A stretch of DNA of 64,000 nt from an uncultured bacterium (GCA_964434115.1 CAYSSX010000007.1:18734-82733); one strand, 5' to 3'. Shown: positions 18,001 to 48,000, numbered from the stretch's first letter. Numbers and translations: made by a program. Notes: generated by a model from the sequence alone, not told the origin.

Positions 18001-21000
18001 TGAATGCCAAGGCTCCCACGGCGCTGGACCTTCCCCGTGCCGATTACGTTTATATGTTTGACCTGTTTGTGGATGACATGACCACGCCGGTGGGAACGAT
18101 CGCCATCCCCGCAAACAAGACAGCCGCACAGACGGACAAACTCCGGGTGGATTTGACGGCCCTTGCCTCGCAGGCCGGCCGCAAGCTTCGGATCCGCTGG
18201 ACAAACCCGGAAGCCAATTGGTCTCAGGCCCAGCAGAAGACCGGCCTGGAAATCAGCGGTTTGATGGTCAAAGACCTGGCTTATGACAGCCGCATGGATA
18301 TCAACGGCGACAAGATTGTGAACAACGCTGATCTGACGGCTTTTGACGCCATCTCGATCCGCACCGCTGTCAAGAGCCAGAAAGTGCCTTCGGATTGGGC
18401 GGACGCCAATGCTCACCGCGGCCTGATGGTTTCAACGCCTCTTCTTCCCGTGGCGCGCGATTCCCTGATGGATGCCGGGGATCTTCTTGCTTCGAACGGG
18501 TGGGCGATGCAGAACGGCCGTTATGCTCAGTCTTCAGGGGCCGCGGTCAAGGCCATTTCCCTGATTAAGGACGGCATTACGGTTCCGGAGAATTTTGATC
18601 TGACGGGCACTCTGCAGTTTGACGGCAACTCCAACCAGGGCCGCGCGGCGGGTATCCTGCTTCGTTATCGTGATGATCAAAACTACGCCTGGATTTCGAT
18701 CGATGGCCCGAACCGCACCATGACTGTCTATGAAGTTGTGGCCGGACAGCAGAAAGCCGTGGCTTCCCAGCAGCTCTCAAGCGATGTCCTGTTCGGTCAT
18801 GATTATGCCTGGAAGGTCGAAGCCCGTGAAAACTTCTACCACATCACGTTCAACGGACAGAAAGTGTTTGAATACCTCAAGCTGACCAAGACGCCGAATA
18901 CCGGAAAAGTCGGCATTTTGAGCGACCGTTCACTGGCCAACTTCTCAAGCCTGGAACTCAAGACCTACACGAACCGCCGCGTTGAGGTTTATGACGTCGC
19001 GAAATCCGGCAATACCTTCAACTTTACGCATTTCACCGACGGCAGCAAGAACGCGTCCAGCGACCCTGTTAAGAATACCGTGGTTCTGAACGGCGTGACT
19101 TATAAACTTCAGGACAACGCCCCGGGCGTGAACCAGCTTTCCCTGATCCGCCAGCCGGTGACGAGCCTTATGGATACTGCGGTCTATCTCCGCGCGGAAA
19201 ATGACTTCTACACCGTGACCAAGGACGGAACGGGTGTTTACCACTTTACGTCTTCTGTGGAAGCCGAAAGAACCAGCACCCTGGTTGATAACAAACCTCA
19301 GGTGACTCTGCATGTCGGCGGCGGCGCCAAACAAAAGACTTATCGTATTGTGGATGCGGGCAACGGACAAGTTCAGCTTGTGGAAATCCCGAAAGCGGCC
19401 GCGGCCGTGTCGTCCGATATCTGGATTGGGGCGGGGGACAAGATGTACATGGTGGAAAACCGCGGCGGAAATGTCTACCGTTTCACTTTGATGGGAACGG
19501 GAACCTTCGTGGACAGCAATGGCACCACAGGCCTTGTGAACCTCAACAGCACGGCTTACCAGGTCAAGGTTACGGGCACCGGCGCGGTGCAGCTGGTCCA
19601 GCCGCGCACGGCCGGCGTTTTACAGGCCAAACAGACGCTTACCCATAACGGTAAAGTGTATGAAGTCACCTACGATAACCTGACCGGAAAATACAGCTTC
19701 CGTGATGTTGTGCTGGGCACCATCCTTCAGAGTAATGCCTTTGAAGGCACGGTCACCCTGAACTCCCAGGTTTATGACATCGTGGTTATGGACCCGGCGC
19801 GCAACATCCGCCTTCTGCAGAAAGAGACTCAGGGCCATGAGGTTTACAGCCACACGGTGCGCTTCGGAAATGATTTTTATGACGTTGTGAAGGAAGGCAA
19901 TGAATATCGCTTTAAGGACGTCCGCCATATTCTCGCGGACCTTGTGACCGTGGGACAGAAAGTCCTGGTGGGTGCCGTCCGCTACAGCATTTATGAAGAA
20001 GCCGCGACCGGTAAGGTCCGCGCGGTCCAGGTCAGCGATGTTTCGGCCGGCAACACGGAACAGCTCGTGTTTGTCGAAGGCACGGGCTACTACTACACCG
20101 TGGTCAGCAACAAAGTGAATATGAAGAAGTACGGCACTTCGACCACCTACGTGGAAGACGTGAATGGCGTGATCAATCTCGGCGGCATTTCCAACTTTAA
20201 AGTGCTCCGTGATGTCCCGGCCGCGGGGGAAGTCGAATTTGCGAAAATCCTGCTGGCCAGCCAAAGCGTGGACCTTGGCTACATGATCCGCGTGGACGGC
20301 ATTGCTTTTAAAGTGACTGCGAACGACGGACCCAAGCAGGTTGTGTTCCAGGCGCTTGAAGGCCCCGTGGACTCGGTGACCGCTTCTTACACCGACCTGG
20401 AAGTCACGATCAAGGGCAACAAATACAAACTGGAATTCCCCGATGCGTCCAATCACGCCAAAGTAAAACTGACGGAAGTGCCGCGCGCCGTGGCACCCGC
20501 GAACGCGGACGTGAAAACCATGTGGGTGGACAATAAATTTTATGACGTAACCGCCGTGGAGCCGGCGAACCCTAACACGGAATACCGCTTTACCAATGTC
20601 ATCAACCCGGTGGAGACCTTTGTCACGGTCAACCGCCAGCTTGTAGGCCAGATCGGCGGCACGACCTTTATTGTCGAAAAGGATCCTTCCAGCGGTGCGA
20701 TTTCGATTCTACGCCCGAGAGTGAAGAGTGATTTCCGCTCCACCGCGCATTCAATAGCGATTTATGATGAAGTGCTGAAGGCCAACCGTATTTGGGAATT
20801 CACCCGATCTGGAAGCCAGTTCACGTTTACCTCATCGGGTGTAGGGAATGTAACGAGCGATGCGGCGGGCAAGCGCGTGACCTTCGGCAGCCAGACGTAT
20901 GACATTCAGGTCATCAATGACGGCCAGCTCCAGATCCTTCTGTCCGCGGTGATTGACGAAGCCCAGAACCTTTATGACCAGATGATTGAAATTGCAGGCA

Positions 21001-24000
21001 CGACCTATGGCGTGAAAGCCGAATTGGTCAACACCGTGCCGACCGGCTATTACCTTCTGTTTAACGCGGCGGGCCAGCAGGTCAATAAATCCATTCGTGA
21101 TCCGGAACAGGAATTCGGTATTGTCTTCGACATCGGCGGCCAGATTTATGACGTACGCATCGACGAGCGCCGTGACCTTGTGGTTTCCCGGCGGCTTGGG
21201 CGCAGTGCGGTCGTTGACACCCATACTGTCTATCTGTACGACGGACTGGCCGCCTCCAGCCTGATCGAAGGAACGGACGCTATCATCAAGGTTGATGATT
21301 TGAATTACCGTGCGGTTTTCGACAACGTTAACAAAAAGGTGACCCTGCAGGGACTTGCCGGGGCCACGACCCAGGGACCGTTTAATTTCGGCGATGTGGA
21401 AATCACGGTTGCCGGAAAGCGTTACTTCCTCGAACTGGGCGCCAGTGTCTCAAGCGTGGTCGCAGACGGCCTCTCCACGGTTCTTATCGGCAGCCGTACT
21501 TACCGCGTGATTGCCGATGACACGGCCCAGCAGCTGAAGCTTCAGACGATGGATGGCGCTGTTACCTTTGGTCCTTTTGCCTATGGAGACTCAGAAATCG
21601 CCTTAGGCGGAGAGCGTTATTTCATTAAGTATGGAGCGGCCCATAATCAGATCACGCTAACTCAGAAAAAAGTAACCCTTCGTTCCGGAAAGAAATACAC
21701 GGTTACGGATCTGGGTTCGGGCAATCTTAAGTTTACGGAAGAAACCACCAACGCCGTGTTTACGAGCATTCCGAGCAAGCGCATGGTGGTGATCTACAAC
21801 CGCGTTTACCGCATGGATTTCACAAAGATCCCCGTCCGGCTTACGGAAGCAGAAAAGATCGATGTGACTGGCGACGGATTTGTGAACAAGGAAGACGCGG
21901 ATGTGATTCAGGACATGATGGCGGAACAGACCTACGTGGACCGCTCTGACTTGAACAAAGACGGAAAGGTCGACCGGGCGGATTACCGGCTTTACGCCGA
22001 AAACAAAGACGCCCTCCGGGACGTTAACGATGACAATACGATCAATTACCTGGACCGCCAGGAACTGGTCAATGCCGCCCAGTATGCGCGTAACACGTAT
22101 TACCAAAACAAGGCTATTGAGTACGATTCGATCGCAAATCCGTTCTACACCACAGGTCAGCAGCCGGCGTATCTTCAGAAGTGGCTGAGTGAACATCTTC
22201 CGTCCTATCAGACAGGAGATTTCCAGAATCGCCTTTTGAATGGAACCATCGAAGTCGAAGATGTGGCGGACTTTGAAATCGCCTACAAGATGCTCGATTA
22301 CCTGACGGATGTGAACGATGACGGCAAGGTGGACAGCAATGATTTGAATTACATGAAACGCCTTCTGGATCTTTTCAAGCTTCTTGAAAAGTACAAGGAC
22401 AATACCGGATCCCTTCTCCCGCAGGCACTGGTTGAAGACTTTGACACGAACCACGCAGATGTCAACGGTGACGGCTTTGTGGATGCCAAAGACAAGCAGA
22501 TCCTGGTCGATAGCTACAACAACTACCTGAAATATGATTTTGTCGGAAACGATAAACTCGTCAATAGCGCGGACGTCAAGTATGTGGAAGATATCTATGA
22601 GCTGATTTTCCCGGTGAGCGGTGTTGTGGAAGGCTGGCGTGCCGGCAATGGGTATGACAAGGCCCAGGGTTTTACGGGCCAGCAGTCCAGCAGCGACGGT
22701 ATTACGACGGCGAGCACGGCCAATTCCTGGGTCGAATACAACTACACGGTGGACCCGAGCGGTAATGTTTTTGCCGGGATTTCCGTCCGCTCGGTCCATG
22801 ACCGCGTGATTCCCGACGGCTTTCAGTATGACATTGATGTCTATCTGGATGGCGTCTACAAAGGCAACATTAAGATTGATGCGCTGGATGCCCTTCGTTT
22901 TGAAGAAAAACGTCTCCAAATTGAAGATGTGGAGAAGGGGCAGCATGCCATCAAGTTTGTTTTCAAGAACATCTCATCCGATGTCCCTGTGGAAGTGGGC
23001 CGCGCTTTCCTGAATCGCAATGGCATCAATTTGTCGGCGATGGATACCAATGCAGACGGCAAGATCTGGGTGGATGACATGGACGAGCTGAAGAATTTGA
23101 TCCAGCAGTATGCCAACGGCGACGGCAACATCACTATGGAAGATCACGACCTGATTCCTTTGGATCAGACGGCCAAACGCAAGCAGGTCATGTACATCCT
23201 TCAGCACTTTAACTTTTCCGATGACGGCGGCACGATCAAGATCAATCAGCAGGATGTGGACGTGATCGCGGACGCGGCGTACTGGTTCATCAATGAAAAG
23301 ATGCTGACACCGTCCTCTGACCCTCGCCAGGCATACCGCTACACCTCCTGGTCCGGGGCCCAAAGCCCTTACGGCAGCGTGGAGAGTTTTGCCTGGGACT
23401 ACAACGGTGATAAACGCGTGGATATTGACGACCGCAAGCTGGTGCTGGACGCGGCCCGGGTTAAGGACATCACCGGCGACGGACATGTGAATGCCCAGGA
23501 TCTTGCTTACCTCCGCCGGCTGCGAGATTTTCTTGCCGCGAACATACATCCGGACGAAATCCGCCGTTCAAACATTACCAAGGACAACACCTTTACTTTC
23601 TGGAGCGGAAGCGGCAAGGAGCAGGTGGCCGGTGATTTTGAAGGCCTTAACCTGAACGGCCTGGACTTTGAAGGAGCGATTGACCAGGTTAAGGGCGAAG
23701 TTACACTGGAAGAAAGCCACGAAGAAAGCCAGACCGCACTTGGCGACACGATCCGTTTCAACGGTAAATTCTATTCCGTCCGGCAGGATGCGGCCACCGG
23801 CCAGTACGTGCTTTGGGATGGGGCCGAGACCTTTATTACCGATGGCCCCAACCACGTCACAACAATAGATCTCAAGGATTACCGAGTTTCCCAGGATCCT
23901 TACACAGGTTCCTACACATTGATCCGCGACGATGTCGCCGTGAGCGCGCCTGTTGCTGATTTTTCTGTGATCCTCGACGGTGATACTTATCAAGTAACGC

Positions 24001-27000
24001 TGAATGAGCTTAATGGGGCTTATAGCTTCCGGAGCGGTCAGAAAGTTTATGAAAGCAATCCGTTTACCAATCAGGTTCGCATCCGTGACGCTGTTTACAA
24101 CCTCGCCATCAGTGATCCCATTACTAAACAGATCAGCCTTACCCGCGACCGGATTGTGGCCACCGCGGGTGCCGGAAATGCGGTAACGGTCGGCCAGGAA
24201 TCCTATAGCTGGACCTTTGGAGGCGGCATTTATGAATTGACGGCGCCCGGAGTCACGCTCCGCAGCGATCCGGCAAGCAGCACGATTGAGATCCAGGGGC
24301 GTCTTTTTGAAGTCACCTCAGCGGGCGGCATTACTCTTAAGGAAATGGTCCGCAGTCGTCATATTGCCGACCAAACCCTCATGGTCGAAGGCGTGGAATT
24401 TGTTTTCAAGAAGCTTGAGGATGGACGCTATTACGCAAGCAGCGGCAGTGAGACGTATCTTTCCAACTCTCTGGGCAGCGAAATCGTGATCGGTAAATAC
24501 ACCTACGATATTAATGTGGTGGATCCCGTGAAACAGAAAATGACCCTGGCCCCGAAGGCCGAAACAAGCGTTCATGCGGGGGATCAAGTTATTGAACTGG
24601 TTTCGGAATATCCGCCGGGCAAGGTTTATTCGGGTAAGCGTTATTGGGTCAAGAAAGACGGCGCGGTCCATCAGTTTTTTGACGGTGTGAACACCCTGAT
24701 ATCCCAGATTGTTGGTTCTGATGAAATTCTGGAAACCCCGGACAACCGCTTTAAGGTTACAACTAATGCCGCCACCGGGGATGTGACCCTGAATATTCTT
24801 CAGCGTACTGATGTGATTCTGGAAAGAGAAATCAACTGGTACAGCGTTTCCGTGGCGGACGGGGTCTTCACCCTTGACGGCGGAGATTATCAGTGGAAAA
24901 AGAACGCGGATAATTCTTACACGCTGACCCGCGGAACCTACACCGCAAATATTGACGCGGCGGCTACTGAAATTACGATTCAGGGAAGACGTTATGCCAA
25001 GCAGCTTGACGGAAACGGGAACCTTCAGCTGTCCTTGATTCTTCCCGCGACAAGCTTTGCCGCGGACCAGGTGATCGAGCTTGACCGTGAACGCTACTAT
25101 GTCACGGAATCCGGAGCGAATTATCAGTTCCGCAAAGAAGGATGGGGACCGCAGACAAGCTCAGGCGGCACCATTACACTGGCGGACGGAAAAAGTTACA
25201 AGATCCAGCAGATCAATTCCCAAGGCGACATTGCCGTGATCCGGGTTCCTGCGGAAACGCAGCTTGTTGTGAAATCTAGCTCAGACCAGCTCGTGAAGCT
25301 TGGAACCCAATTCTATGAAGTCCGCCGTGACGCGTCCGGAAACCTGCTGATATACCGCGACCAGGTCCTTGCCGCGAAAATGCCTTCGGGTCAAACCACC
25401 GTCACCGTGGACGGCGTTCAATACCGTGTTCTTCCGGCCCATGAAAGCCGCAAGCTTGTCCGTTTTGAAGCCCAGCCCGAGCAGATAGAAGCCATGGGTA
25501 GGGACGCCCTGGTCGCGGGGGAACACTACTATGTCGTGACTTACGATGCAGCCAACGATCTTTTTACTTTTGACGATGGCACAGACCGTTTCCAGAGTGT
25601 TGCTAAGCGCAGCCTTGAAGGCCAGAAACTTGTAACCTTGAATGGGGTTACCTATGAAATCAACCGCTCGGAATATGGGCAGAAGACAACGCTTTCCCGC
25701 CTTTACGGAAAGAGTACCAGTGAAATTTTTGACTCATCGATCATCATCGGCGGTGAGCGTTATACCTACACCTATGATTATCGTGAGGATGTTTTTGTTT
25801 TCGACAACGGTATTAATGCGGCCCAGAGTGATGCCTATACGGATACGGTTGTTCTCCGGGGGATTTCTTATAAAGTGGGCCGCGATCCCTTTACCAATGA
25901 AGTCACTCTGAATCAGGTCGTTGATTTCGATACCGTGGATCAGAAAGTCGTGCTCCGGGGCATCACCTACACCATTGAAAAACGCGGTCTCAACCTTTAC
26001 CGGTTCAAGGATGGAGCCAATAACCAGTTTGATAGCGCGGAAGATAAAACGATTGTGATCGCCGGTGTGGATTACAAAATCGAGGTGGTTGACCGCGATC
26101 GCCTCATTCTTAAGCTGCACGAAGCTGACGATCTGAAAATCTATGATGATGCGGGCGTGAAAAAGGTCAAGATCGCAGGCCTTGAATGGACCGTGACAAC
26201 AAACGCCGGCGGCGGTTATACCTTCACGAAAGGACCCAAGTCCTACCGCAGCATCCGTGATCAGGCGGTTTATATTGAAGGGGTTCGTTATGATCTTGTC
26301 ACAGACCCGGTTGACAGCACGCTGCATCTCAAAAAAGATTTTACTCAACAGAACACGCCGCTCCCGGTTCAGATCGGCGGGAGAATTTATCTTGTTTCTC
26401 TTGACGTAGAACGCGGCAAACTTATTTTCCGGGACGGCTTCAGCCGTTATGAGAGCGATGATTATATGACCAGCGTTCAGCTTAAGGACGTCCGCGGCAA
26501 CACCATCACCTATGCTGTGGACATTAATCCCGCGACTCATGAAGTGGTTTTGACGGAACCCCACGGAGCCGTTGAGCAGACCACTGGTCTTTTGGGCAAT
26601 ACCGTGAGCTTGAACGGTACCACTTACACCATCGGAAAGACCGCCGGAGGCGAATGGACGTTCGCCCGCAATGACGGCCAGTTCAAGCTCAGCCGCGACG
26701 GACTCCTTTATCTCGAGGAAGCAAAATTCAAGGTCACCGTCAACGAGGCAGATCCGAATCAGCTGATTTTTGTGCGCCAGTATGACAGCACGGCTGTGGA
26801 AGGGCAGGTGGTTCGCCTGTTCAACCGTCTTTATGCCATTGAGGACAACCATGATGGCGTTGTAGACATGGCGGACCGTGAGGCCCTTGAACTTGAGTTT
26901 ACGGAACTCGACAAGCTGGATCTGAACGATGACGGCGTCTTGGATGACCGTGATCTTGACGTCAAGAGAGGCTTGATCGCCCAGCTGACCCGCGGTGTGC

Positions 27001-30000
27001 AGACCTTACGTGAAAAACAGCGCAAGGTGGAGAGTTTTATCAATGATCTTTACAGCCAGGAGAAATTTGCCAAGGATATGATGCGCTATGCGGATGCGAC
27101 CAAGGACCATCAGGTCACGCAAGCCGACGTGGACGCTTATGCGGCAAGCCAGAAAATTTACGATCAATTGGATGTGGAAGGCTTGCAGAAAGTTTCCCAG
27201 AAGTCAACGGCGCAGAAGATCCTGATTGACGGCACTGAGTATGAAATCCGTAAAGGAAACGGCACCAAGATTGTGTTTGCGGCGGGGAACCTTGAATGGC
27301 CGTCCAATGACGCCCAGACACTGGTTCAAATCGGCCAGATTACCTATGAACTTGTACGTGATAGCGTGAGCCAGCAATGGAAAGTCACGGCCCGTGAAAA
27401 CATCAATGCGGATACGCCCCAAACGGGAGCCCCCACAGTGGTTCTGGGCGGCCGCCGTTATGAAATCCGTTCTTATGATTCCGAACGATGGGAACTGGTC
27501 CGGGGTCCTGATCACTTTGTCCAGAACGGCGAAGGGCGCCTTGAAGTTGCCGGCGCTACTTATGAATTGACTTACAATTCAGTTACCAAAATCTGGACCT
27601 TTAGCCGTGTTGAAGAATTCCTTTCTTCTGTACCCGAGATTACGTTGGACGGGGTTACTTATAAAATCACGACACCGCCCGGAAAAGTCGTGCTCCTGGC
27701 TCCGGACAGCACGACCCATGAAATCGTCAACAATACCGTCGAAATCGACCATCTTATTTATGACGTGACAGATGAAGCCGCTACCGGCCTTAAAGTCTTC
27801 AACCGCCGAAGCGTTTATTTGGGCACCGGGACAACGACGATCCGGGTCTTAAACAAGAATTTCAACGTCACGGTGAACGGTGATGGGACCTATAAACTCA
27901 CGAATGCGGCGGACGCAAGCGAAACCTACACCAGCGTCAAGCTGCCCCAGCACCGCATCCGTATTGGCACATGGTTCACTTATGACGTGTCCCTGACGAA
28001 TGGCAACTTGACCTTGAAGGAACGCCGCTTTCCGGATCAGGATTACCCGATTCCGCCGGACCTTTATCAGGACCTGGCTAAACAGGTAGTCTGGGAAACG
28101 CTGGCTGACGTCAACAAAGACGGCCTTATCAATGCCACTGACCGCAGCGTGCTTTATGATCCGGGTTATATCGGCGATGTGGCCAAGACAGACATCAACC
28201 GTGACGGGCGTCCGGCTAACCAGGATCCGGCAGACGAAGCCGTGGTGGCCGCCATGGTCGAGAGGATGAAGACTTTCCGCCGCGCGGATGTGAACAGCGA
28301 CGGCCTTCTGGACTCCTTTGACGTTGCCAAGTATGAGCGTTATCTCGCCGATGGCATTAACTGGGACATCGACGGTGACGGCACGGCCACCCAGCTGGAT
28401 CTTGATTTCCTTAAGCGCTTCGTGATTCAGGAAAACGTGAAAAACCGCCTGCGTGAACGCCTTGATACGAATGATGACGGGAAAGTTTCAAACGCTGAAA
28501 TCGATGTGTTTCGTAGTCACTTCGAACGGATGTATGACTTTAACGGGGATGGCATTCAGACGGCGGCAGACCTCCAGACCGTCCGTGACATCAAAGCGCT
28601 TGTTGATTCGATGGGCGTTTCAGCGGAAACGGTCGGCAAAGCAGACATCAACGGTGACTACCATGTGGATTACAAGGATATTTTCCTTCTCACCGACGCC
28701 CTCAAATATAACAAGGACGTGGATGGCAATGGTACGGTCGAACAGGCCGATGTGGATGCGATCAAAGATCTGCTGGTGCACGGTCCTAAGGCCCCTTACC
28801 GCGTCCCGCAATTTTTTGTTTCTTACGATGTGGTTTCCAAGGCGGATGTGAACAAGGACGGCCTCATGGACCAGCGTGATCTGGACGCCCTGGATCAGGC
28901 CGATATTACGATCGACCGCATGAAAGCCGGTTCCGCCGATGCCATTACTCAGTTCACGAAAAACGGCGACAAGCTTCAGACCAGCCAGCCGGGCGGATCG
29001 TTCACTTTTGACAAATACAACGCCCCGAAAGACGGAACCTACATGTTGGGCGTAGAACTCCAGGGTTCTGAAGTGGATACGATTATTTTTGATGTTTTTG
29101 TGGACGGCATGAAGCAGGGTACGATTAGCGTAGACACGGCCAAGGGACAGAAAGTCCGTGGAAGAATGGCCCTTGAACTTGCGGCGGGCCAACATCAGAT
29201 TCAATTCGTCCGGACAGATTTTCCCAAGAAGAATCTTGACCTAGAAGTCACGGAAGTTTTTGTGGTCAATCCTCCGAAACCGGAATACGACATTAATTCC
29301 GACGGTGTTTATGACGAGCAGGACCGGGCCATGATCGGTAACTTGATTCAGGGGAAGAAGGTTATTAATCAGGCGGACGTGAACCGTGACCGTGTATTTG
29401 ACGAGTTGGATCTCATCGCCTATGACAATGAAAACCTAGTGCTTGTCCGCGACGTCAACCGTGACGGTAAAACCGATGCTGATGACCGCAAGATGATCGT
29501 GGATCTCCTCAAGCAAAGAGCCATCGGTGCTCATGCAGACATTAACGGCGACGGGCTTGTGAACATCGCGGATGCCGTGTCGCTCCAAAAAGCCGTCAGC
29601 TACCGTATTGACGTGAATGGGGACACCAAGGTTGACCAGCTCGACATAGAATTGATCCAGACGATTTCCGGTAAGCTGATGAACATTCAGCTTTCAGACC
29701 TTGATCTGTCGGATTTCAACAACGATGAAATTGTCGACGCGCGTGACTTGGAAATCATGAAAAGCCAGCTCCGGGACAACAGCCTCCAGAACGCGATCAA
29801 TTTTCTCATCAATCCGGCCGCGGGATTTCCGATCCGGGTCGGCGCGCGTGATTATTCAGCGCAGGATACCGCGCGTTTCCTGAATCAGCTCGACGGCGTC
29901 CGGGTTTTGGACCAGGAACTTTGGGTGGCCCGCCAGGACCTTGAGGCTTTTGAAAAGGCATCGACTCCCAACTGGGATACAAAGACAGGTACTTGGCAGG

Positions 30001-36000: not shown

Positions 36001-39000
36001 TTGGCGCGGACGGCATCATTAAACTCGAAGAACGCAAGGACCGTTCCATCGCGGCGCAGGTCATTGAAGTGAATGGCGCCTTGTACCGTGTGGATTATGA
36101 ATTGATCAAGCCGGAGAATCCGGCTGACGGCTTTGAACGTTACGGATACACCTTCACGCCTTTGATCGTCGGCAAGGACGGCGTGCTTCAGGCGCTGCGT
36201 GAATCCCATGACCAGGCGGCCTCCGGCCTCCGGGTGCATTATGATGAGGCCTCTCTCAAAGGGCAGTCTTATGTCATCATGCCCGATGGCTTGAGTTATC
36301 AGCCGAAATTCGATAACACCGGAAAACTGGAACGTTTTGTCCGCGTGCCTCTCGTCAGTAAGGCCTTCAGCCCCGCGAGCATTCAGCTTGGATGGGAATT
36401 CTATACGATCAACGATACGGCCGGGCAGCCGCTTCACTTTGCCGGGGAGTCCGGCACTTATGACAGTGATGCGGGCCGTACCAAGGTCACGATCAAAGAC
36501 AAAATTTTCACGATTACCAAAGACGGCAGTAACTTTGTGCTGACGGAAGAAATTCACCCGGCCCTTTCCGAAAACTCGAAGGGCCGCATGGTGTGGCTGC
36601 AGGGCAAACTCTTTAACCTCAAGCAGGATTACACCCTCGATGGAAAACGGATCGTCACCGTATCGGATGGCACCCAGAGCTATGCTTCCGCCCCGGGCGC
36701 TGCCACGATCACTGTCAACGGCACAGTCTATCGCATCATTGATGACCCGGCGCCAAGGAACATCGGCGACCCCGTCCGTGATGTCGTGCTGGTCGAAGAT
36801 TCCGGAGATCTTGTAGTCAGCTCCCAGATTTTCCAGACCACTTCTTCGGAAGGATATATCACCTTGAGTGATGACTACAACCCTGCTCGCCAGTATGAAA
36901 TTTTCAAAAACGGTGACGGTACCTATCACTTTGTTTCTACGGATGCTTCACATGGCTTTGTGTTCGACAGCGTCAATGTCACGAAAAACAGCTATGGGTA
37001 CGGCTCCAACAGCCAGGACGCGCCTGAAGGACAGTTTGTTTTCTTTCCGATTCCCAATAGCCAGGAGCAATGGCAGGTTCGTTATAAGATCACTGCGGAT
37101 AGTCTGACCGGAAACCTCACCTTTACCCGGATGACACGGGCGAAAGTGTATCAGGGCTACGGCGGCATGGAAGGCATGGGCGGCGGTGAAGGCGGTGTGA
37201 ATATCCAGACGGATCCTAACCTGACATTCCCGAATAATGACACGATGGCACGGCGAGTCGAGGTCAATGGCCGGGTTTATACGTTTGAACCGACGTATGA
37301 ATGCGGCGGCGGTGAAGAGGGGATGGGCGGCGGGATGTGCGGAAGCAGCGCGCCCTGGTCCGGTTATGACTTCAAAGATGAGCAAGGCACGAAATATCAT
37401 GCCTCTCTCAGCACGGGCAAGGTAACCCTCGCGGACGGGATCTCTTACCGGTTTATTTCTCAGCCTCCCGCGAAAGGCGGCGGTGACAACGTGCTTTTGT
37501 TCACGGACCGGCTGGGTAAAGATGTTGCGAATCCTTTTGCGGTCAGCGACTGGCTCGCCGTGACAGTCGACGGCCAGGCTTATCTTGTGGAACTCCAGCT
37601 GGATTCCGATACTGGCAGCTCTTATCCGAGCGCCCTTGTCAGGAACGGTGTGAGCTATCCGATTGAGCGCGGCACGGGTAAGGTTTCGATCGGCCCCCGT
37701 AATTTTGTGGCCGTCAGCGTTGAAGTCAAGGACGCACCTAGACAATTGACCTTGATTGAGGACAAGGACGGGCTCGCTCTTTACACCCGCCCGCGTCCGC
37801 AAAGCTCTTACAACGCAGACACTACAGACCTTAAGATTGACGGGACGACTTACCGGATCACAAAGAAGAACTTCCTTGGTAAAGAAGTTGTGGCGTTTAC
37901 CAAAATGACGGAAGGCGGCCAGCTGACGAACCTTATATATTATGTTTCACCCGGCTCGAACCAGTTTGTTCTGGCGGGGAAGCTTTATCAGTTCCTTGGG
38001 GATTTGACTGGCGAAGCCAGGGGCGCGGTCATTTTTGAAGTCGCGAAAGCGGGTTCTTTGAGCTCAACGGCTTTGGGTGCGGCCATCAATATGGCAGACC
38101 GCAAACCCGGCTATTATTACCGGGATGAAGCGGCTCAGGCGAGTGTTGTGACGCTGGGCAATCAGAACTACACCTTGATTCCTGCCGACAGTCAGGGAAC
38201 TTTCTATCTGACCGACGGCCAGAATATTTTTGTCAGTGACTTGAGCGGACGGATTGTGGTCGGAAGCTCGGCCTACAGAATCATGAGTTACAAGGTTTCT
38301 GGCGCCGCCCTTAACAATCCGAACCTCCGGCCCGCCTATGACTATACAGCCTTTTATCTGGTTGAAGATTCGACACGGCCAGTCAATTTTGATTTCACCC
38401 TTGTCAAGAACGGCATCCGCCAGATTGATGTTCAGCCAGTCCGTGAATCCCGCGCCCAATTCATGCAGGAAGAGGGCTCTGACAAAGTCCGGCTTTTTGA
38501 CGGCCGCGAATACACGATTGTTTTTGATGAACATACCGGCGCCGTGTCTCTTACCGAGGTTGTTACCGGACAGGTCTCTTCGCCGATTCACAGCGCGGTG
38601 CCATCGTTCCAAATGGTTGAACTTGAAACGGATCTTGTCAATGGTCAGCTCCGCCAGAACCAGCTGATTTCGAGCCTGAAAACGGCGGCGGGAACTTCAG
38701 ATGCCAAGGGCCGCCATTCCTACATCCGCATTTTGGGCGTGAACTATGAAGTGATTGAGACCCCGGATGGTTCTTTTGAATTCCACCTGGACCAGGCGCT
38801 TAACATTGACGCGATTCTTGAGGCCTCAAATATTATTAATCCGGGCGATAAAGAACTGTGGAGAAAAACAGTTCAGACCATGTTGGAGGCCGGCCAGGTC
38901 GTCAAAGTTACGGGCGATGCCGGAGCTGTGCTTCTGGGCGGCATTACCTACCGCATTTCCAAACACCCTGTGACCGGTGATGTGGAACTGATGGGCCGTG

Positions 39001-42000
39001 ACACCCGTCCTCGCGAGGACGAGACCACCCAGAACCAGGGAAGCCAGGGTCTTGGCGACATCATGATGGGCATGCATGGCGATGACGAGATGGGCGGCGG
39101 TCAGGCGCCCGAAGTGGAACGTACGGGCGATCCGCTTCTGAAAGAAACTCGGCTTCTGACGATCCGCAAACGTCCTGACGGGGCCTTTGATATTTATTCC
39201 CCGGCAGACAATCAGGTTTATACCAGTGACAAGACCAACAAAACGGTGGTTCTCGGCAATTACATTAAGTATGACGTTATTGAGGACCCTGTGACCGGCC
39301 GGGTCCACCTTGAAGAGACAACCCGGACCATTTCCGCTCCGCGTATGGATCAGGTCATGGAAGTTTACGGTTCCAACTACGGGGTCGTGAAATCAACGGA
39401 CGGCCAAGGCCGTACGATTTACACGTTCTATGACGGCCTTCACACCTACGTGAGTGATCCGGTCACGAATACCGTCCGGCTCGGGGAGTTTATTAAGGCC
39501 TCCTATGACGATTATATGAAACGTGTGGAGGAGGGAACTCTGGATGAAGTGAAGGGACTCATTTATGACGTCCATGTCGACGCGAATACGGGCCGCATTT
39601 ATCTTACGGATCATAAAGAGACCACGGTCAAGACCCAAATCATTGAAATTGCTGGTTACTATTTCACAGTCAATCGTGACCAGGACAACAATGTCACGCT
39701 CAGCGATTTCGAAACCGCCGAGATGCTGATGACGCTGCCCCCGGATAAAACCAGCTTCCAGTTTGAAGGGGAGACCTACAACATAACCTATGACAGTACC
39801 ACCCAGTGGATTCGTCTTAACGGTCAGTCCGGCAACCGCTCACGCGATGTCCAGATCCTTAAGATCAATGGAAACTACTACCGTGTCACCCCGATGGGGA
39901 CCGATGAGTTCAAGTTCTTCTCCAATAATGAAACTTTCACTTCAAGCGCTCTGACCAAACAGGTCGTGCTTCAGGACGGCAAGACCTACAATGTGACTTC
40001 TGATCCTGTTTCCGGCGCGGTGCGGGCCGAGGAAGTTTATATCGACTCGGTCTCTTATGACGAGCTGTCCCTGATTCTCGGAAACAAACAGTACAACGTT
40101 GAAAAGATTGCGGACCATAAATACCGCTTCACGGATAAATCCGGGGCTGTTGTGGAAAGTGATCCCGTCACTCTCAAAGTCACGCTGAACAGCAAGGAAT
40201 ACGGAGTCATTGAACATCAGGACGGCACGGTGACGGTTGCTGCTCAGGACGATATCAGCAGCGCGACGTACCACAAAGTGATCCAAATTGGCGAAGATGT
40301 TTATGTGGTCCGTCAGACGGTAGACAAACGCTGGACTTTCACGAAGGACGATAAAGTTTATGTTTCCGACAAATCAGGAGAGATGGACCTGCAGGGTATT
40401 TTCTTCCGCGTCACCTACAATGAAACGACGCAGCAGGTGCGCGTGGCGGAGCGTGACCACCGCATTAGCTCCGCGGTGTCCATGCTTGAGATCCAGGAGC
40501 CTCAGGCGAAGCGTCGTATCAGCTTTGCCGGGAAGACTTATGAAATTAATTTTGACGTCGTGGACATTGTCGACAAGGAAACCTTAAGTGAAACCGTCCA
40601 CCGCCAGCGGCCCTTGTTTACGTTTGAAAACACGATCGACGGCACAAGCTATGAAAACCGCACCTATAAGTTCGGAGGCTCGGTCACGGCCTGTTATGAA
40701 AAACCGCCGAATTGCGACCGTTATGACATTGTCAGCACAGACCGCAATCAGTACACCATTGATCTTCCGGAAGTCACGCTGAAGCTTGAAAACTATCCTC
40801 GTGTATTCGCTTACGGCGTTCAGATTGATAACCGCCTGTTTTACGTGAAGGAATTCGGCACTCTGAGCCATCAGTTTTATTCCGAGAATGAAACTTATGA
40901 CTCCTACACCGTCACGACGCCGGGTGAAAACCCTGAAGATCCGCCCATTATTGAAGAGTTTGTCGAACTTCCCGACGGCCACGGCGGCATTGTAAAGTTC
41001 AAGATCGATTACGACAGATACTATAACCACGATGCAGCGCCCGCGGACTACTTCGGCGACCACCTGACCATGAATGTCATGGAAAAGGGAATGGCGGACA
41101 ACGTCCAGGTCAAGCCGAAGATTGAAGTCAACGTCGAAACCTTCCAGACATCGCGCTATTACTTCGCCGAGAAAGACGAAGTTTCCGGTGATTGGGCCGT
41201 GCGTGACCGGGACACGGGGAACGTTTACGATGTGTTTCAACAGGTCGAAGTTGATGATGAAACGTACCGCGTTTCACGCGACCCCTTCACGGGAGAGGTT
41301 TCCCTGACGGAGCAGCATGTGGTCAGCACGCGGGTTCCGGGGCGTTTGTCGGTTCGGGTGGGAGCCGACGCTGCCGGTTACAGCTACGATCTCCGTGCCG
41401 ACGGCCGCTTTGAGTTCAATGACGGCATCCAGACATTCTACAGCACCCGCGAAAACGGGAAGGTCAGCGTTAAGCTCGCCGATGGAAAGAATTATTTCAT
41501 CACCTATAACTCGGAAACCAAAGAACTGATTCTCAGCGAACAGTTTTCATTATCTTCCCCGGCCGGGACAGCCAAACTTAACCTGAAAGGAAAAGTTTAC
41601 AACTATACGTTAAATGCGGACGGAACCGTGACGTTGACCCGCGATCTTTTGACTTATCGCAGCCAGGGCACTATGGAATTGATTACGTCGCTCAAACACC
41701 CGGTTCAACGTCCTCTGACCCAGGAAGAAATTGACGAAAGCATGGGCGGAACAGGCGGCACAGGCGGTACGGTGGGCGGCGGCTCCGGCGAAATTGGCGG
41801 AGGCGGTACCTTGGGCGGCGGTCATGGCGGCGAAGGTGAAGGCGGTGAGGGCGGCATGGGAGGCCTCGGTGGTCTCGGCGGAACCGGCGGTACGGGCGGT
41901 ACGGGCGGAACAGGCGGTTCGATGGGCGGAGGCGGCACTTTGGGTGGTCATATGGGCGAAGGGGGAATGGTGGTCGGTGCCCTTGGACCCGTGAAGTGGG

Positions 42001-45000
42001 AATACTCGGGTGCTGTTGTTACAAAGCCGTATGATGTGTCTTTCAATCCATTGACCGGTGAAATCAGCGTTCAGGAGCGTCAGGTTCCCGTGTCTCCGAT
42101 TGACTATACGCGGATCATGGGCATTTCCCAGAAACTGGCCCCGCTTTCAGCGGACTTTAAAACGTATCTCGACAGCCAGAACCTTTATCAGACAGAGGAC
42201 TTAACCGCGGATTCTCCTCAGCGCCGCCTTTATTCGGAATATATCCACAATCCGGCGAACGGATATTCCTCGCAGTTTATCAAAGATTTTGACACGTTTG
42301 TTTTCACGTACACCCAGTACCCATATCCTTGGGAATCCTCACTGGAAACGTCCTACAACTATACGAGCGGAATTCCCGGGTCGATTTCAGGCGGCGCCGG
42401 TGGATCTACTCCGAACGGTCTCCTTTCCGGCAATACCAGCATGGAAGGCGCCTACGATATTCTCTTTGACAGCCCGAACGGCAATATGTCGACCCGCGGC
42501 AATCTGCAGTATATGGCCATGCAGCAGCTTCAGCTTTATCAGGATGAACGCCAGATTTTCCATCCTTGGGTTCTTGGCGTGCACCGCGTTCTGGAACCGA
42601 AATACAACAATGACGCTGCCGTGACTCTGGACAGCGGTCCTTTTATTCTTTTTGCCGGAGACGCCAACAATAACTACCGTAACCAGGGCGTAACGGTAAA
42701 TGGTTTTGCTTACAACATCACCTTTGACGCGGCGACCAAAACCCCGACGCTCACGGAAGTGAACGAGTATATGCTGGCACGCGAAGACCAGGCCCTGATT
42801 CTTGAATATCATATGAAAGACGCCGGCAATAGCGAGACCGGAGTGGAGTACAACCTTTTTGACGGAACCTTTACGAACATGGGGCTCTTCAAGGGTTCTA
42901 TCCAGCAGCGTAAGGCCCTCGGTACCCAGCACGATTACGCGAATCCCGCGAACGAGTGGAAAACGGTCACGCTGAAGCAGATCCGTGAAGACGGTCTCTT
43001 TAATTACAGCCCAGCCAACAAGACTTTTGTGGTTCAGGGCAAGACCTACCGGATTTTTGAGAATCCGCTGACCCATGAATTTCTGATTGCGGCGCAAGAA
43101 ACGCCGCCGGCGATTGAAATTCTGCAGACTGTGGAGATCAACGATCATTTGTATCAGATCAAAAAAGGAACCGGCGACCGGGTCATTTTTGTGGATGAAG
43201 CAGGTGAAGAGACCATGAGCGACCTGGACGGCAAGACCGTTCAATTTGAAGACAGCGGTTTGACCTTTGATATTTCCCGTAACATCCTGACCGGCCAGTG
43301 GACGATCAGTGAAACCATACAGCAAAGCCATTTTGGAATCGGCGCTGTGGTGGACGGCTGGACCGATTTTATTCAGGCCGGGCACCGGACAAGCCGCATT
43401 AGTTTCCATCCCGTGAATAACCTCGGGGATACACGCACTTTTGACATTCCTGATTATGTCGGCGGCGTGACCTTCATTAATAGTGCTGTTGTCGAAGGGG
43501 CCCTTGGAAATATCTATGATCTGTTTGTCTTTAAGACCGCCTTTGACCAGCTTTGGTTTACCGACGGCCGCGGCGGAGTCACGGTCAAGCCCGATCAGAT
43601 GAACCAGATCGTCTTGGACGGCCAGCGCTATAACGTTCTTTACAACAAAGTCGACAACACGGTCATGCTTGAAAAATACCGTATGGAAATGCCGTCCTTC
43701 TCAAGCATCAAGAGCCAGGGGCATTTCTACACGGTCAACGATAAGGCTGGAAGCTATACCGAAGTCATTGGCGCCGGAAACCGTAAGATCACATGGGTTC
43801 AGATTTCCTGCAATGAAGAACGCTGCACGGATGTGGACACAACGCCGTCCTATCTTCCGATTGAAACCTTGAGCAATCCTTTCCGTAACAGTGTTGTTCT
43901 GGATGACGGCATTGACCGCGATTTGATTATTGACCCCAGAAACCCGAAGAATGTGGACTTGGCGCCGGACAACATTCAAAGTTTTGATCTTCCGGATCTC
44001 AAGCTCAAGGATCGCTATTTCCAGGTCCTCAAGAATGCCGACGGTAGCTATACCTTCCGTGAAACCTATGTGCCGAAGTCTGAGCGCTATACCAGCGACA
44101 AAACCACCGGCGAGGTCAACATCGACAACGTCGTCTATAAGTTGACCGTCGATGCAGTGAGCGGGAAGGTCACGCTTGACCGCAAAGACCCGGTGGTCAG
44201 CACTCACGTCAACGGCCAGTTCCTGGTCGTTCAGGATGCCGTCTATGAAGTCGTGGACAACGGCGACAGCACTTACACTTTTGCCAACATGCAGGTGATC
44301 GGCCTGACCTTCCGCAGCGAGCCGCTGACTCAGGTCCCGACAGTCAAAATCAATGAACGCATCTATACGATTCTCAAGGACGCAGCGGGGAAGATTTCCC
44401 TGCAGGAACAATTTATCGAGCATTCTGTCGAGAATGATTCCCTTATCATGGATGATGTTTTCTACCGGGTCTATGCCATCAAGGATAAGCAGGGAAAAAT
44501 CCGCGCCTGGTTCTCTGATGGGCGTGACGCGTATCTTTCAGAGCCCTTGATTCCTCTCGACTCCGTGAGCGGCCAGCAGAAATTTTACCGCGCCCGCGTC
44601 ACAATCAAGGGTGAAGCGTTCTTTGTGGACATTGACATTGAAGATATGAATGCCACGACCGAAGTCACAGAATACCTCGCGGCCAAAACCAAGGACGATG
44701 CCGGAGAAGAATTTGTGGACCCCATTTTTGGAGGAGGGATTTTTGACTGGGGATTCCTGGGAGGCCTTGGCAGCGGCGGGGGCTTGGGCGGCGATGGTGA
44801 AGATGGCGGTGACTATGGGGACCTTGGCGGTTTGGGAGGCCTTGGCGGTGACGGGGGCCTCGGCGGTATGGGCGGCCTTGGCGGTTCTGGCGGTGAAGGC
44901 GGTCTCGGAGGTATGGGAGGCATGGGCGGTCTTGGCGGCATGGGAGGCGGCGATTTGGGCGGTCTCTTTGGCGGCAGCGGCGGCGATTTCGGCGGCCTTG

Positions 45001-48000
45001 GAGACCTTTCAGGATTCTGTGAGAATGCGGACTTCTGCTATGGCATGGGCGGTTACAATCCTGCGCCCCAGCCCAAGAATGTCAAGGTGACCTTGAACAA
45101 GATCAAAGGAAAAGTAACGCGTATCCGGACCGTTTATGAAGACTCCGGGGAAGCTCAGAAGATCCGTGTTGAAGATCAGGATGTTTATGTGGTCAAGGAA
45201 AACAAGGACTTCCTGAACTATGGCGGCCGCATTGAAGACCAGAACTCAAAGTATGAACTCAATCCGAACGCGGGAAGCTACCGCTTCACAACGCGCGGTG
45301 AAACGTACTGGTCCGACCCTTCCGACAAAACCGTTAAGATCGGAACGAAATTAACCTACCGCGTTGATGTCGACAAGGTGACCGGAGCCGTGACTCTGCG
45401 TGAGAATGACACCAAGAGTCTCGGTGTTCAGGTGCTTGAAATTGACGGCCGCTACTACACGGGTGTTTATGATCCGGAGAATTCCAGCCGCCAGTTCACC
45501 TTCAATGATGGTTTCGGCCAGTACATCAGCACCATGGATACGTTCGGGTTCTATGAGGAAGACGGCACGCTATTCTCTTCGCCATCCCTGTACGGCAACA
45601 ACCGTCAGAATTACGCCCGCATTGAGTCCAAAGATGTTCTGACCACCAAAGGCCCGCGTGAGTTAGGTTCCAAATACACGACCAACGAGCTCAATTATCA
45701 GCTGGACATTACAGACCAGGGTTTCTACCGGGTCGGCTTATCCGCGAAAGTACTCTCGGATCTTGAGGATGCGATTTACAAAGACAATGCCAAGGGACCG
45801 AGCCTTGCTCTGGATCATGCCTTCAGTGTTTATCTGGATGGAAAATTTTATGGGACTTTCTACCTTCAGCCGAATGACAAGGAATTTCAGAACGCGGGCC
45901 TGAAAGTCCTGATTGATAAAGGCATTCATGACCTTAAGTTTGTCTGGAATGTTCCGGAACTTATGGATAAGACCAAGGAGATTTTTGGCGACATCAACAT
46001 TCAGATCCGCGATGTGTTCGCGGTCAAGGAAGAGGTCTTCCAGGCGGACTTGAACGGTGACTTGGTGGTCGATGCTGCGGACCGAGCGATCTTGGAAGGT
46101 CTTATCACTGAAAACCGTACTCCTGAAAAGGGCGAAGCGCTGGATGCTTCCAAACAATACATAGATATGTTCGGCGTCCGGTATGAGGCTGTCCGCAACG
46201 AAGAAGGAAAATGGTCTTTTGTGAACGGCGGTACGGTTTACACTGAAGACAGCAATGGTCAGATTACGGTCAATGGCGTCCTGTTCAACGTGAAGACCGA
46301 TGCCTTGTCACGGTCGATGGCCTGGGATTTTGCGGAAAAGCTTGAAAACGGAGACACTCTTTATCCGTCCAATACCGGAAATGCCGGCCAGAGTTTTGAA
46401 TTCCTGGGTAAACATTTCACCGTTTGGGCCATTAAAACAGGTGCTGACAACAAGCTTCGTTTCCATCTCTTTGACGGCGAAACGGAATACATTTCCGAGC
46501 CTGGCGACATGTGGGGGAATTGGGGCGGCGGCGATGACGATTATCCGGGCATGGGAATGGGCGGGATGGGGATGGGCGGCTATGGCAGTTCGTTCAATTT
46601 CCCTGACCCCAAGGTTGCCATTAACGGGAAAGTTTATAAGGTTTCTGAAGTCATGGGCAAGAAAGCCACTGTCCGGCTTGAAGAGCAGATGAAGCGCAGC
46701 GAGCTTCTCGCGGAAGAAGTGATCGAAGCCAATGGCTTCCGCTACCGGATCACTCAGGATGCGGACCACTTCTACCTTAACAACGGCACCAAAATTTATA
46801 CCGTAGACAAGACCGCGTCCCGGGTGAACCTTGACGGTTACATTTACGATATCGAATTTATTTATCCTGAAAACAACAATCAGGGAGGCTACTACGGCGG
46901 TGATGAAGGCGATGATCCTTTTGGAATGGGCGGATACTTCGGCCCCGGCGGCTCCATGGGCGGCGGCTACGGCGGCACCCAGCAGCAGCCGAAGCCGATT
47001 GGCCTGACACTGAAGGAAGTACTGCCGGACGTCCGGCCGGTTTTCCTGCAGACGATCGAAATCGCGGACCATGTTTTGAGCGTGGATGTCTCTGAGGATG
47101 ATCCAAACTCCTTCCTTTTCAGTGATGGGACTAATCTCTTCCTCAGTGATCCCGTGACGATGAAAGTTGTGATTTACGGTGCTTCCTACGACATTACTGT
47201 GGATGGCGGCGGTGTTTCCTTGACGGAAACGTCCTACTCGATTGTGAAGTCCGGAGAGCATGAAGTAACGATTAATGGGACAACGTACCTGGTCCAGTCT
47301 ATTGGTAACGGCCAGTATGTTCTTTCCACGCCGCCGGTCACTTTCACCAGTGATGTGGATGAGACCGTTGTGATTGACGGCACCACCTACCACGTGATGA
47401 AGGATCCTGCCGGGCGTGTGTTCCTTTTGAAAACGCGGCCTGTTGAAAGCGTCATTGTCAATGTCCGGGTGATCTTTGCCGGCGGCCGTCCGTATCAGGT
47501 GACGGCCAACAATGCCGTGCCCGGAACGTGGGTCTTTAAAGACGGCAATAAAACTTACACGAGCCAGGCTTCCGGACGCCTTGATATTGACGGCGTCCTC
47601 TATGATGTTTCTTATGATGCGGTCAAAGACGTTCTGACCGTCGGAAAAAAGCAAGGCATTACGGCCGATCTGAATGTCGACGGCGTGCTGAATGAGACGG
47701 ATCTTAACCTGATCAAGGATCACTGGGGCGCCCGTGACATTCCGGTCCAGAACGGGTCCGCTTTTGTCGCTAAAGGCGCAGACGTCACGGTTTCAGGGCA
47801 ATCGGCTCAGGCCCGGGGCGGCACGTCGCGCGGCGAGTACTGGGCGGATTATGAATTCAGCATCGATGCTTCGGGCAGCTATGAAATAGGCCTGGAAGTT
47901 CTGAAGGGCAACGATGTTCATATGGAAACCTTCCGCTTCGACGTCTTCGTCGATGATATGGAAACGCCCGCGGCCCAGCTTGAAATGACGGCATCAACGA

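Follow-up and report, generated by a model that had tools for sequence, protein, structure and literature searches.

West-Roberts et al. (2023; bioRxiv 10.1101/2023.11.21.568195) defined the "Dockerin-type giant proteins" of Omnitrophota, in which dockerin/EF-hand and TSP3 repeats occur with DUF1080 and ILEI domains, and in which CBM35-like barrels placed between dockerin helices form a "ladder" (Figure 6 in that article). Most of the N-terminal part of these proteins is free of transmembrane (TM) helices, and they are read by those authors as extracellular attachment proteins. For one member, CAILPI010000004_73, the same article presents an AlphaFold2 (AF2) prediction of a hollow "antiparallel beta helix" tubule of ~1500 aa, bearing "external paired antiparallel beta sheets" and likened to Rhs shells (Figure 5B in that article). 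More recently, Nielsen & Lui (2026; bioRxiv 10.64898/2026.06.07.730766) treated the dockerin-bearing giants as one architectural class (class 3) and urged structure prediction of the dark-matter fraction. In this article, we describe a repeat unit of ~71 aa that fills much of a probable member of the Dockerin-type class, encoded in a 64,000-nucleotide stretch of DNA from an uncultured bacterium (GCA_964434115.1, CAYSSX010000007.1:18734-82733). This whole stretch is referred to below as the window, and positions are counted from its first letter. The texts of both articles leave stretches of this kind "unannotated" and do not define the ~71-aa unit as a repeat family.

Judged by its sequence, the window protein matches the Dockerin-type class of Candidatus Omnitrophota feature for feature. 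It is encoded by a giant open reading frame (ORF) with long stretches devoid of TM segments, it contains many Dockerin_1/EF-hand and TSP3 repeats together with DUF1080 and ILEI domains, and its closest named relatives are proteins from Omnitrophota metagenome-assembled genomes (MAGs). A series of ~250-aa super-repeats, each with a CBM-like sandwich and split dockerin loops, is the apparent counterpart of the published ladder of CBM35-like barrels and split dockerin helices. Members of the class are at least 30,000 aa long and have a C-terminal TM anchor and SecA-like domains; the window shows at least 21,332 aa. Since the gene class was published in 2023, the advance reported here is incremental rather than a new category: the unit is a new repeat-domain family inside a published protein class.

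A repeat unit of about 71 residues

Iterative profile self-search of the window protein identified 79 units at first and 113 in the end. In tandem, the units recur with a median period of 71 aa (interquartile range 69-74), and together they cover 7,903 aa, or ~23.7 kb, which is 37% of the window. The first-pass annotation, made from the sequence, had put the repeats at more than 15 kb of coding sequence, and given this coverage the figure holds for the window as a whole. As a cross-validation, a hidden Markov model (HMM) built from the 34 units located before aa 10000 recovered 44 units beyond aa 10000, and the same HMM found no units when applied to the sequence in reverse or to 20 copies that had been shuffled locally, in blocks. 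The repeat is thus not a chance pattern. A BLAST self-comparison is almost blank across the three blocks in which repeats had first been flagged, because the paralogous units are only ~20% identical to one another.

Those three blocks are real, with 78%, 81%, and 55% of their length covered by the envelopes of 11, 18, and 29 units, respectively, and within them the gaps between units in an array are mostly <10 aa. The arrays also run well past the range flagged at first, extending over nt 9357-63515. The original description of two alternating motifs in repeats of 40-60 aa requires revision. Both motifs are present as a loose consensus, while their strict patterns match only once each, and they are not separate elements that alternate but the two halves of one longer unit. 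The first corresponds to strands 3-4 of the unit (Y19.F21.D23G24...[YF]28.S30D31) and the second to strands 5-7 (V37.L39..G42..Y45.[IV]47..D50..T53G54.V56.L58.E60).

The most conserved columns of the unit are Y45 (84%), Y9 (67%), S30 (62%), and F21 (61%), and L58 and G42 are conserved as well. The conserved positions fall into two classes. The first consists of hydrophobic and aromatic residues that alternate along the strands (positions 9/11, 19/21, 28, 37/39, 45/47, and 56/58); the second consists of Gly, Asp, and Ser residues located between the strands assigned by DSSP (positions 6, 17, 23-24, 30-31, 42, 50, and 53-54). As both classes map to the fold, the conservation is accounted for by the fold alone. 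No polar cluster that would hint at catalysis is found among the conserved columns.

The unit does not correspond to a curated family. Pfam models searched over the entire protein give no match on the arrays, and NCBIfam models give none on three array regions. Individual scans of 72 single units at E <= 10 revealed no recurrent family; the most frequent appeared in 3 of the 72, which is the noise level. The curated Pfam and NCBIfam models for PQQ repeats or propellers match neither the arrays nor the 72 single units, even at E <= 10. In these two libraries, the arrays and units show no match to YD/RHS, VCBS, Big, cadherin, or PQQ models, and so the absence of a named family noted from the sequence withstands the comparison; a confident YD, VCBS, Big, or cadherin match, the outcome that would have removed the novelty, did not occur. 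Membership in the YD/RHS, VCBS, Big, cadherin, choline-binding, and PQQ families was considered in turn, and each was ruled out as no profile matched.

Relatives are rare: when 1.84 billion cluster representatives were searched exhaustively with the profile, 235 proteins scored at E <= 1e-3, of which 31 scored at E <= 1e-30. A word-prefiltered homolog search with a 662-aa piece of array 2 had returned no match, because the units are too divergent for the prefilter. The relatives range in length from 1,000 to 7,800 aa, with as many as 42 units in one protein and a tandem period of 72 aa (333 tandem pairs). At least two near-full units are present in 85 of the 150 top matches, usually alongside dockerin-type Ca loops. 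Among the 22 best matches, all 17 named proteins come from Candidatus Omnitrophota/Omnitrophica MAGs. These are marked "partial" and lie on contigs barely longer than the ORF, and the repeat is found in giant-gene fragments of this phylum. The repeat is restricted to Omnitrophota among the named matches examined, as the matches examined from outside the phylum contain no full-length unit. Half-unit matches in Halomonas "Ig-like" and Reichenbachiella "beta strand repeat" proteins lack a full-length unit and were judged to be compositional.

One relative allows the arrays to be compared unit by unit. P0002, encoded on an 18.5-kb JGI metagenome contig (L002), is orthologous to and collinear with window aa 7864-11985, at 47% identity. 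All 18 units of array 2 are kept in P0002, none having been gained or lost, and the alignment is almost free of gaps. Identity per unit across this array ranges from 27 to 57%. Orthologous units are on average 45% identical, compared with 20% between paralogs, and the linkers average 35%. The higher identity of orthologs and the preserved unit number indicate that the arrays are ancient, that their length is stable, and that each unit is individually maintained. The contig itself (1-18486) is coding from end to end on one strand, in three overlapping ORFs (3-5213, 5164-17622, and 17591-18484). A second contig, L001 (1-27521), is likewise coding throughout on one strand and is split into three overlapping or adjacent ORFs. 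Either frameshifts introduced by faulty assembly or genuine interruptions of the giant gene may account for these splits. The relative P0005 is located on a 55-kb contig, where it is flanked on the same strand by ORFs of 7,601 aa and >4,868 aa.

Predicted fold and likeness to propeller blades

A single reference unit (aa 13285-13356) was modeled by AF2 with an alignment of 72 paralogous units. The model has a predicted local distance difference test (pLDDT) score of 94.8 and a predicted template modeling (pTM) score of 0.77. DSSP assigns seven short strands (2-4, 7-13, 19-23, 26-29, 36-38, 44-49, and 56-60) and almost no helix, in agreement with the all-beta, hairpin-rich character proposed in the first-pass annotation. 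Foldseek finds no match for the single unit, with the best E values being 0.37 in the PDB and 0.049 in BFVD. As neither Pfam nor NCBIfam has a model that matches it and Foldseek finds no counterpart in the PDB or BFVD, the ~71-aa unit is uncatalogued as a domain family.

A model of four consecutive units (aa 13213-13490) was obtained with 19 disjoint paralogous chunks as the alignment. Each unit again forms seven short strands. The mean pLDDT is 82.4 and the pTM 0.42; block means are ~83-94 within the units and only 53-68 in the three linkers. The unit folds confidently on its own and also occurs singly in the ladder of super-repeats, which argues that it is a domain and not the coil of a solenoid. 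The continuous beta-solenoid originally suggested is not shown by these models, considering the confident single-unit model, the weak linkers, the low four-unit pTM, and the isolated units; longer arrays may still form one, as a tubule has been modeled in a protein of the Dockerin-type class. An extended fibre made of the arrays is still plausible.

Mean-field direct coupling analysis (DCA) of 567 units, taken from the window and from 150 relatives, shows ladders that fit hairpins 2-3, 4-5, and 6-7. The top intra-unit scores are not above those of column-shuffled controls, and DCA is therefore not used as support for the topology. Between units, an underpowered set of 182 tandem pairs reveals no coherent interface, with top scores barely above partner-shuffled controls.

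Among known structures, the unit bears a weak but recurrent resemblance to the blades of PQQ/BamB-type propellers. When the unit profile is compared with PDB sequences, the designed propellers Scone-E and Cake10 and the natural protein 3hxj score summed E values of 1.6e-20, 3.2e-20, and 4.2e-12, respectively. None of these matches contains an individually significant stretch, and the scores build up across the perfectly repeated blades of the designs. Positions 5-58 of the unit are collinear with ~1.4 PQQ-type blades, and hhalign aligns the unit with three Cake blades at a probability of 78.7%. The pattern shared with 3hxj and with the Cake and Scone designs (PDB 6tjc-6tji, 7awy, and 7awz) is G..Y.[VI]..dG..[YW].F....S......[VI].[VIL].G..Y.[VI]..D..tG. 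In PQQ blades the "W-motif", A.D..TG...W, forms the C-D hairpin. On the basis of this pattern, the unit might be read as strands B-C-D followed by A-B-C-D, or ~1.75 blades of the PQQ/BamB type.

The four-unit model gives a similar picture, in that Foldseek ranks BamB and other propellers first among its PDB matches (E ~4e-4, probability ~0.9). The superpositions with these structures have TM-scores of 0.15-0.19 and a root-mean-square deviation (rmsd) of ~19 A, values at which the likeness is local only. Unlike the propellers, the unit has a 71-aa period and seven strands and folds alone, and the four-unit model does not close into a ring (TM-score to BamB 0.15). Any relationship between the unit and propeller blades is at most remote or convergent. 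The RHS/YD repeats of Rhs proteins, Tc toxins, and teneurins also share hairpins with a G..Y...D..G-like signature. However, Rhs and teneurin structures are found far down the four-unit Foldseek list (TM-scores 0.12-0.15), the units are discrete ~71-aa domains rather than ~20-aa hairpins in a continuous sheet, and Pfam RHS_repeat does not match.

Arrangement along the giant reading frame

The first-pass annotation had not recognised that the blocks lie in one ORF, which spans the entire window. This reading frame, frame 3 of the plus strand, is free of stops over 21,332 codons and open at both window ends, compared with 752 and 1482 stops in the remaining plus-strand frames. Its GC content at codon positions 1, 2, and 3 is 0.57, 0.39, and 0.63. 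No TM-like segment is detected across the 21,332 aa in a 19-aa Kyte-Doolittle window (maximum mean 1.46). Residues D, G, T, and V are abundant, Asp (9.3%) and Gly (9.0%) being the commonest, and cysteine is nearly missing (0.1%). Stop-free stretches of 400-660 codons also occur antisense to this frame, for example at minus-strand positions 56778-58763, 58923-60485, and 16827-18431. They are taken to be shadow ORFs that arise from codon usage, not genes.

Features of the window protein (nt, position in the window; aa, residue of the reading frame)
Feature	nt	aa	Strand	Basis
Giant reading frame fragment, host of all repeats	3..63998		+	0 stops, Pfam domains, codon-position GC
3keto-disac_hyd (DUF1080) domain	3741-4244	1247-1414	+	Pfam, E 1.2e-11
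Gly-rich low-complexity segments	4473-4685, 41715-42014, 44703-45035, 46497-47012, 51507-51656		+	GG[LMT]GG type
TSP3_bac repeats, 6 stretches	~7791-7856		+	Pfam, E 6.8e-35
Isolated single units	9357..17792	3119-3196, then nine copies in 3841-5930	+	One per ~250-aa super-repeat
Nine ~250-aa super-repeats	11523-18330	3841-6110	+	
CBM_35, weak match		3963-4026		Pfam, E 0.0014
Array 1, 11 units, two short gaps (first block)	18978..21884	6326-7294	+	Self-search; 78% of block covered
Array 2, 18 units (second block)	23748..28046	7916-9348 (1,433 aa)	+	81% of block covered
Dockerin/EF-hand-rich stretch between arrays (context, not repeat)	28047..33611	9349-11203	+	Pfam Dockerin_1, EF-hand_7
Two-unit array	33612..34058	11204-11352	+	Profile self-search
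Composite array region, 33 units (third block and beyond)	35196..47690	11732-15896	+	Self-search
Reference unit, ~71-aa seven-strand beta module	39855..40070	13285-13356	+	AF2 model
Scattered units and short arrays	48228..53021	16076-17673	+	Self-search
ILEI domain	50769-51026	16923-17008	+	Pfam, E 1.2e-13
Diverged 79-aa subfamily, 28 units	53829..63515	17943-21171	+	Profile self-search

As the table shows, the units occur singly, in short runs, and in long arrays. In array 2 they are mostly 2-14 aa apart. In the composite region, runs of 1-6 units are broken by Gly-rich linkers, degenerate units, and CBM-like modules, and the scattered units that follow are intermixed with CBM-like sandwiches, dockerin loops, and the ILEI domain. 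The Gly-rich segments that interrupt the arrays are 30-110 aa long with at least 40% Gly, and may be flexible hinges. The order within each super-repeat is one unit, a half-dockerin Ca loop, a CBM-like sandwich of ~110 aa with the pattern Y.F.v...G.Y...v.vDG...L..G.H.i...W.N, and a second half-dockerin loop. Dockerin_1 is matched in four 5000-aa segments of the protein (E 2e-57, 2.6e-37, 2.4e-48, and 5e-10), and EF-hand_7 is matched as well.

The 79-aa units toward the end of the window are homologous to the core family according to profile comparison (hhalign probability 96.2%, E 2.7e-9 over 68 columns). They alternate between two subtypes, with an identity of 31% at offset 2 versus 24% at offset 1. 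This difference points to the duplication of a two-unit block of ~157 aa, more recent than the duplications in the core arrays.

Possible stalks, tubules, or multivalent binders

The explanation that we consider the most probable, with moderate confidence, is that the unit is an autonomous ~71-aa beta module, and that its long, length-conserved arrays are extender or stalk segments of a giant surface protein that is probably extracellular and Ca2+-binding. The giant product is probably exported; its extracellular location, the spacer role of the modules, and any superstructure are inferred. With the modules joined by short linkers, a run of as many as 18 would give a long, segmented rod, and such rods might pack further into a regular helical fibre. 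The dockerin/EF-hand and TSP3 Ca2+ loops, the CBM-like sandwiches, and the DUF1080 and ILEI domains would be spaced out along the rods and projected by them toward a host or prey cell, whose surface would be their target.

A precedent for such a design is found in the extender arrays of giant adhesins, such as the ~104-aa Ig-like RII repeats of the Marinomonas primoryensis ice-binding adhesin (PDB 4p99) and the BIg arrays of SiiE. There too, small all-beta modules in tandem account for a large share of a giant Ca2+-binding protein, with a long TM-free stretch, a conserved number of modules, and the presumed projection of binding domains. The resemblance does not extend to sequence or fold: at 71 aa the unit is smaller and differs in its strand count, no Pfam Big or cadherin model matches, and the profile match to 4p99 (summed E 2.5e-8) contains no significant stretch.

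Several points weigh against the stalk explanation. The location and function of the giant protein are argued by analogy. The published AF2 model predicts a hollow beta-helical tubule in the same protein class, and a binding role of the variable unit surfaces is possible. Furthermore, the alignment behind the four-unit model is shallow (20 rows, with ~5 over the first unit), and its pTM is somewhat above our own estimate, which was not computed, for four fully independent beads.

The strongest alternative is that successive units stack face to face, as the blades of a propeller that never closes, to form a hollow tubule of ~1500 aa. This would in essence be the fibre or solenoid originally suggested, with blades in place of single hairpins. 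We consider this possible but distinctly less likely than stalks of autonomous modules. It retains this weight because the published model of CAILPI010000004_73 shows a tubule, which may consist of such units, and because the blade-like pattern of the unit suits open blade-on-blade stacking. Array 2 is close to the tubule in size, the unit profile is collinear with more than one PQQ-type blade, BamB propellers are the top Foldseek matches of the four-unit model, and the strict unit number in the ortholog is as expected if a defined assembly length matters. On the other hand, the linkers of the four-unit model are poorly predicted and its overall pTM is low, the TM-scores to propellers and Rhs shells are 0.12-0.19 with rmsd values of 17-25 A, isolated single units exist, and the tandem pairs reveal no coherent coevolving interface, although that analysis is underpowered. 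A more specific version, in which the unit descends from a PQQ/BamB blade at ~1.75 blades per unit, has lost ring closure, and winds in arrays of fixed length into an open hollow blade-on-blade helix that is the published tubule, appears doubtful to us. If it were true, it would amount to a new fibrous architecture derived from the propeller repeat, a micron-scale surface appendage in a single polypeptide, used by ultra-small predatory or episymbiotic bacteria.

A further alternative, which partly overlaps with the others and which we regard as improbable, is that each unit binds a ligand such as a cell-wall glycan, making the arrays multivalent binders like the choline- or glucan-binding hairpin repeats. 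Consistent with this, the most conserved positions are largely aromatic (Y45, Y9, F21, Y19, and Y/F28), the units adjoin CBM-like sandwiches, DUF1080, and ILEI domains, and glycan attachment has been proposed in the literature for the Dockerin-type class. The divergence of paralog surfaces together with their conservation between orthologs would also fit many distinct specificities. However, the conserved aromatics alternate within the strands and are paired with aliphatics, the pattern of a hydrophobic core rather than of an exposed platform; no carbohydrate- or cell-wall-binding repeat in Pfam or NCBIfam matches, and no solved CBM is among the Foldseek matches. Finally, it is highly improbable that the units are ordinary PQQ/BamB-like blades, about four of which would close into 7-8-bladed propellers strung along the protein, since the summed profile scores, the hhalign result, and BamB at the head of the four-unit Foldseek list are set against the lack of any single significant stretch or curated propeller match, seven strands in 71 aa instead of eight in ~80, a four-unit model without ring closure, and runs of 1, 2, 3, 4, 5, 6, and 14 units that clash with a fixed blade number.

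One module that is unrecognised by the curated libraries makes up ~37% of this 21,000-residue fragment and large parts of dozens of giant-gene fragments of Omnitrophota. Its definition renders "dark" sequence in the largest known bacterial proteins annotatable, and constructs of one to four units are tractable targets for structural and binding work. If the arrays do form stalks or tubules, the finding bears on how the ultra-small Omnitrophota reach, and attach to, their hosts or prey.

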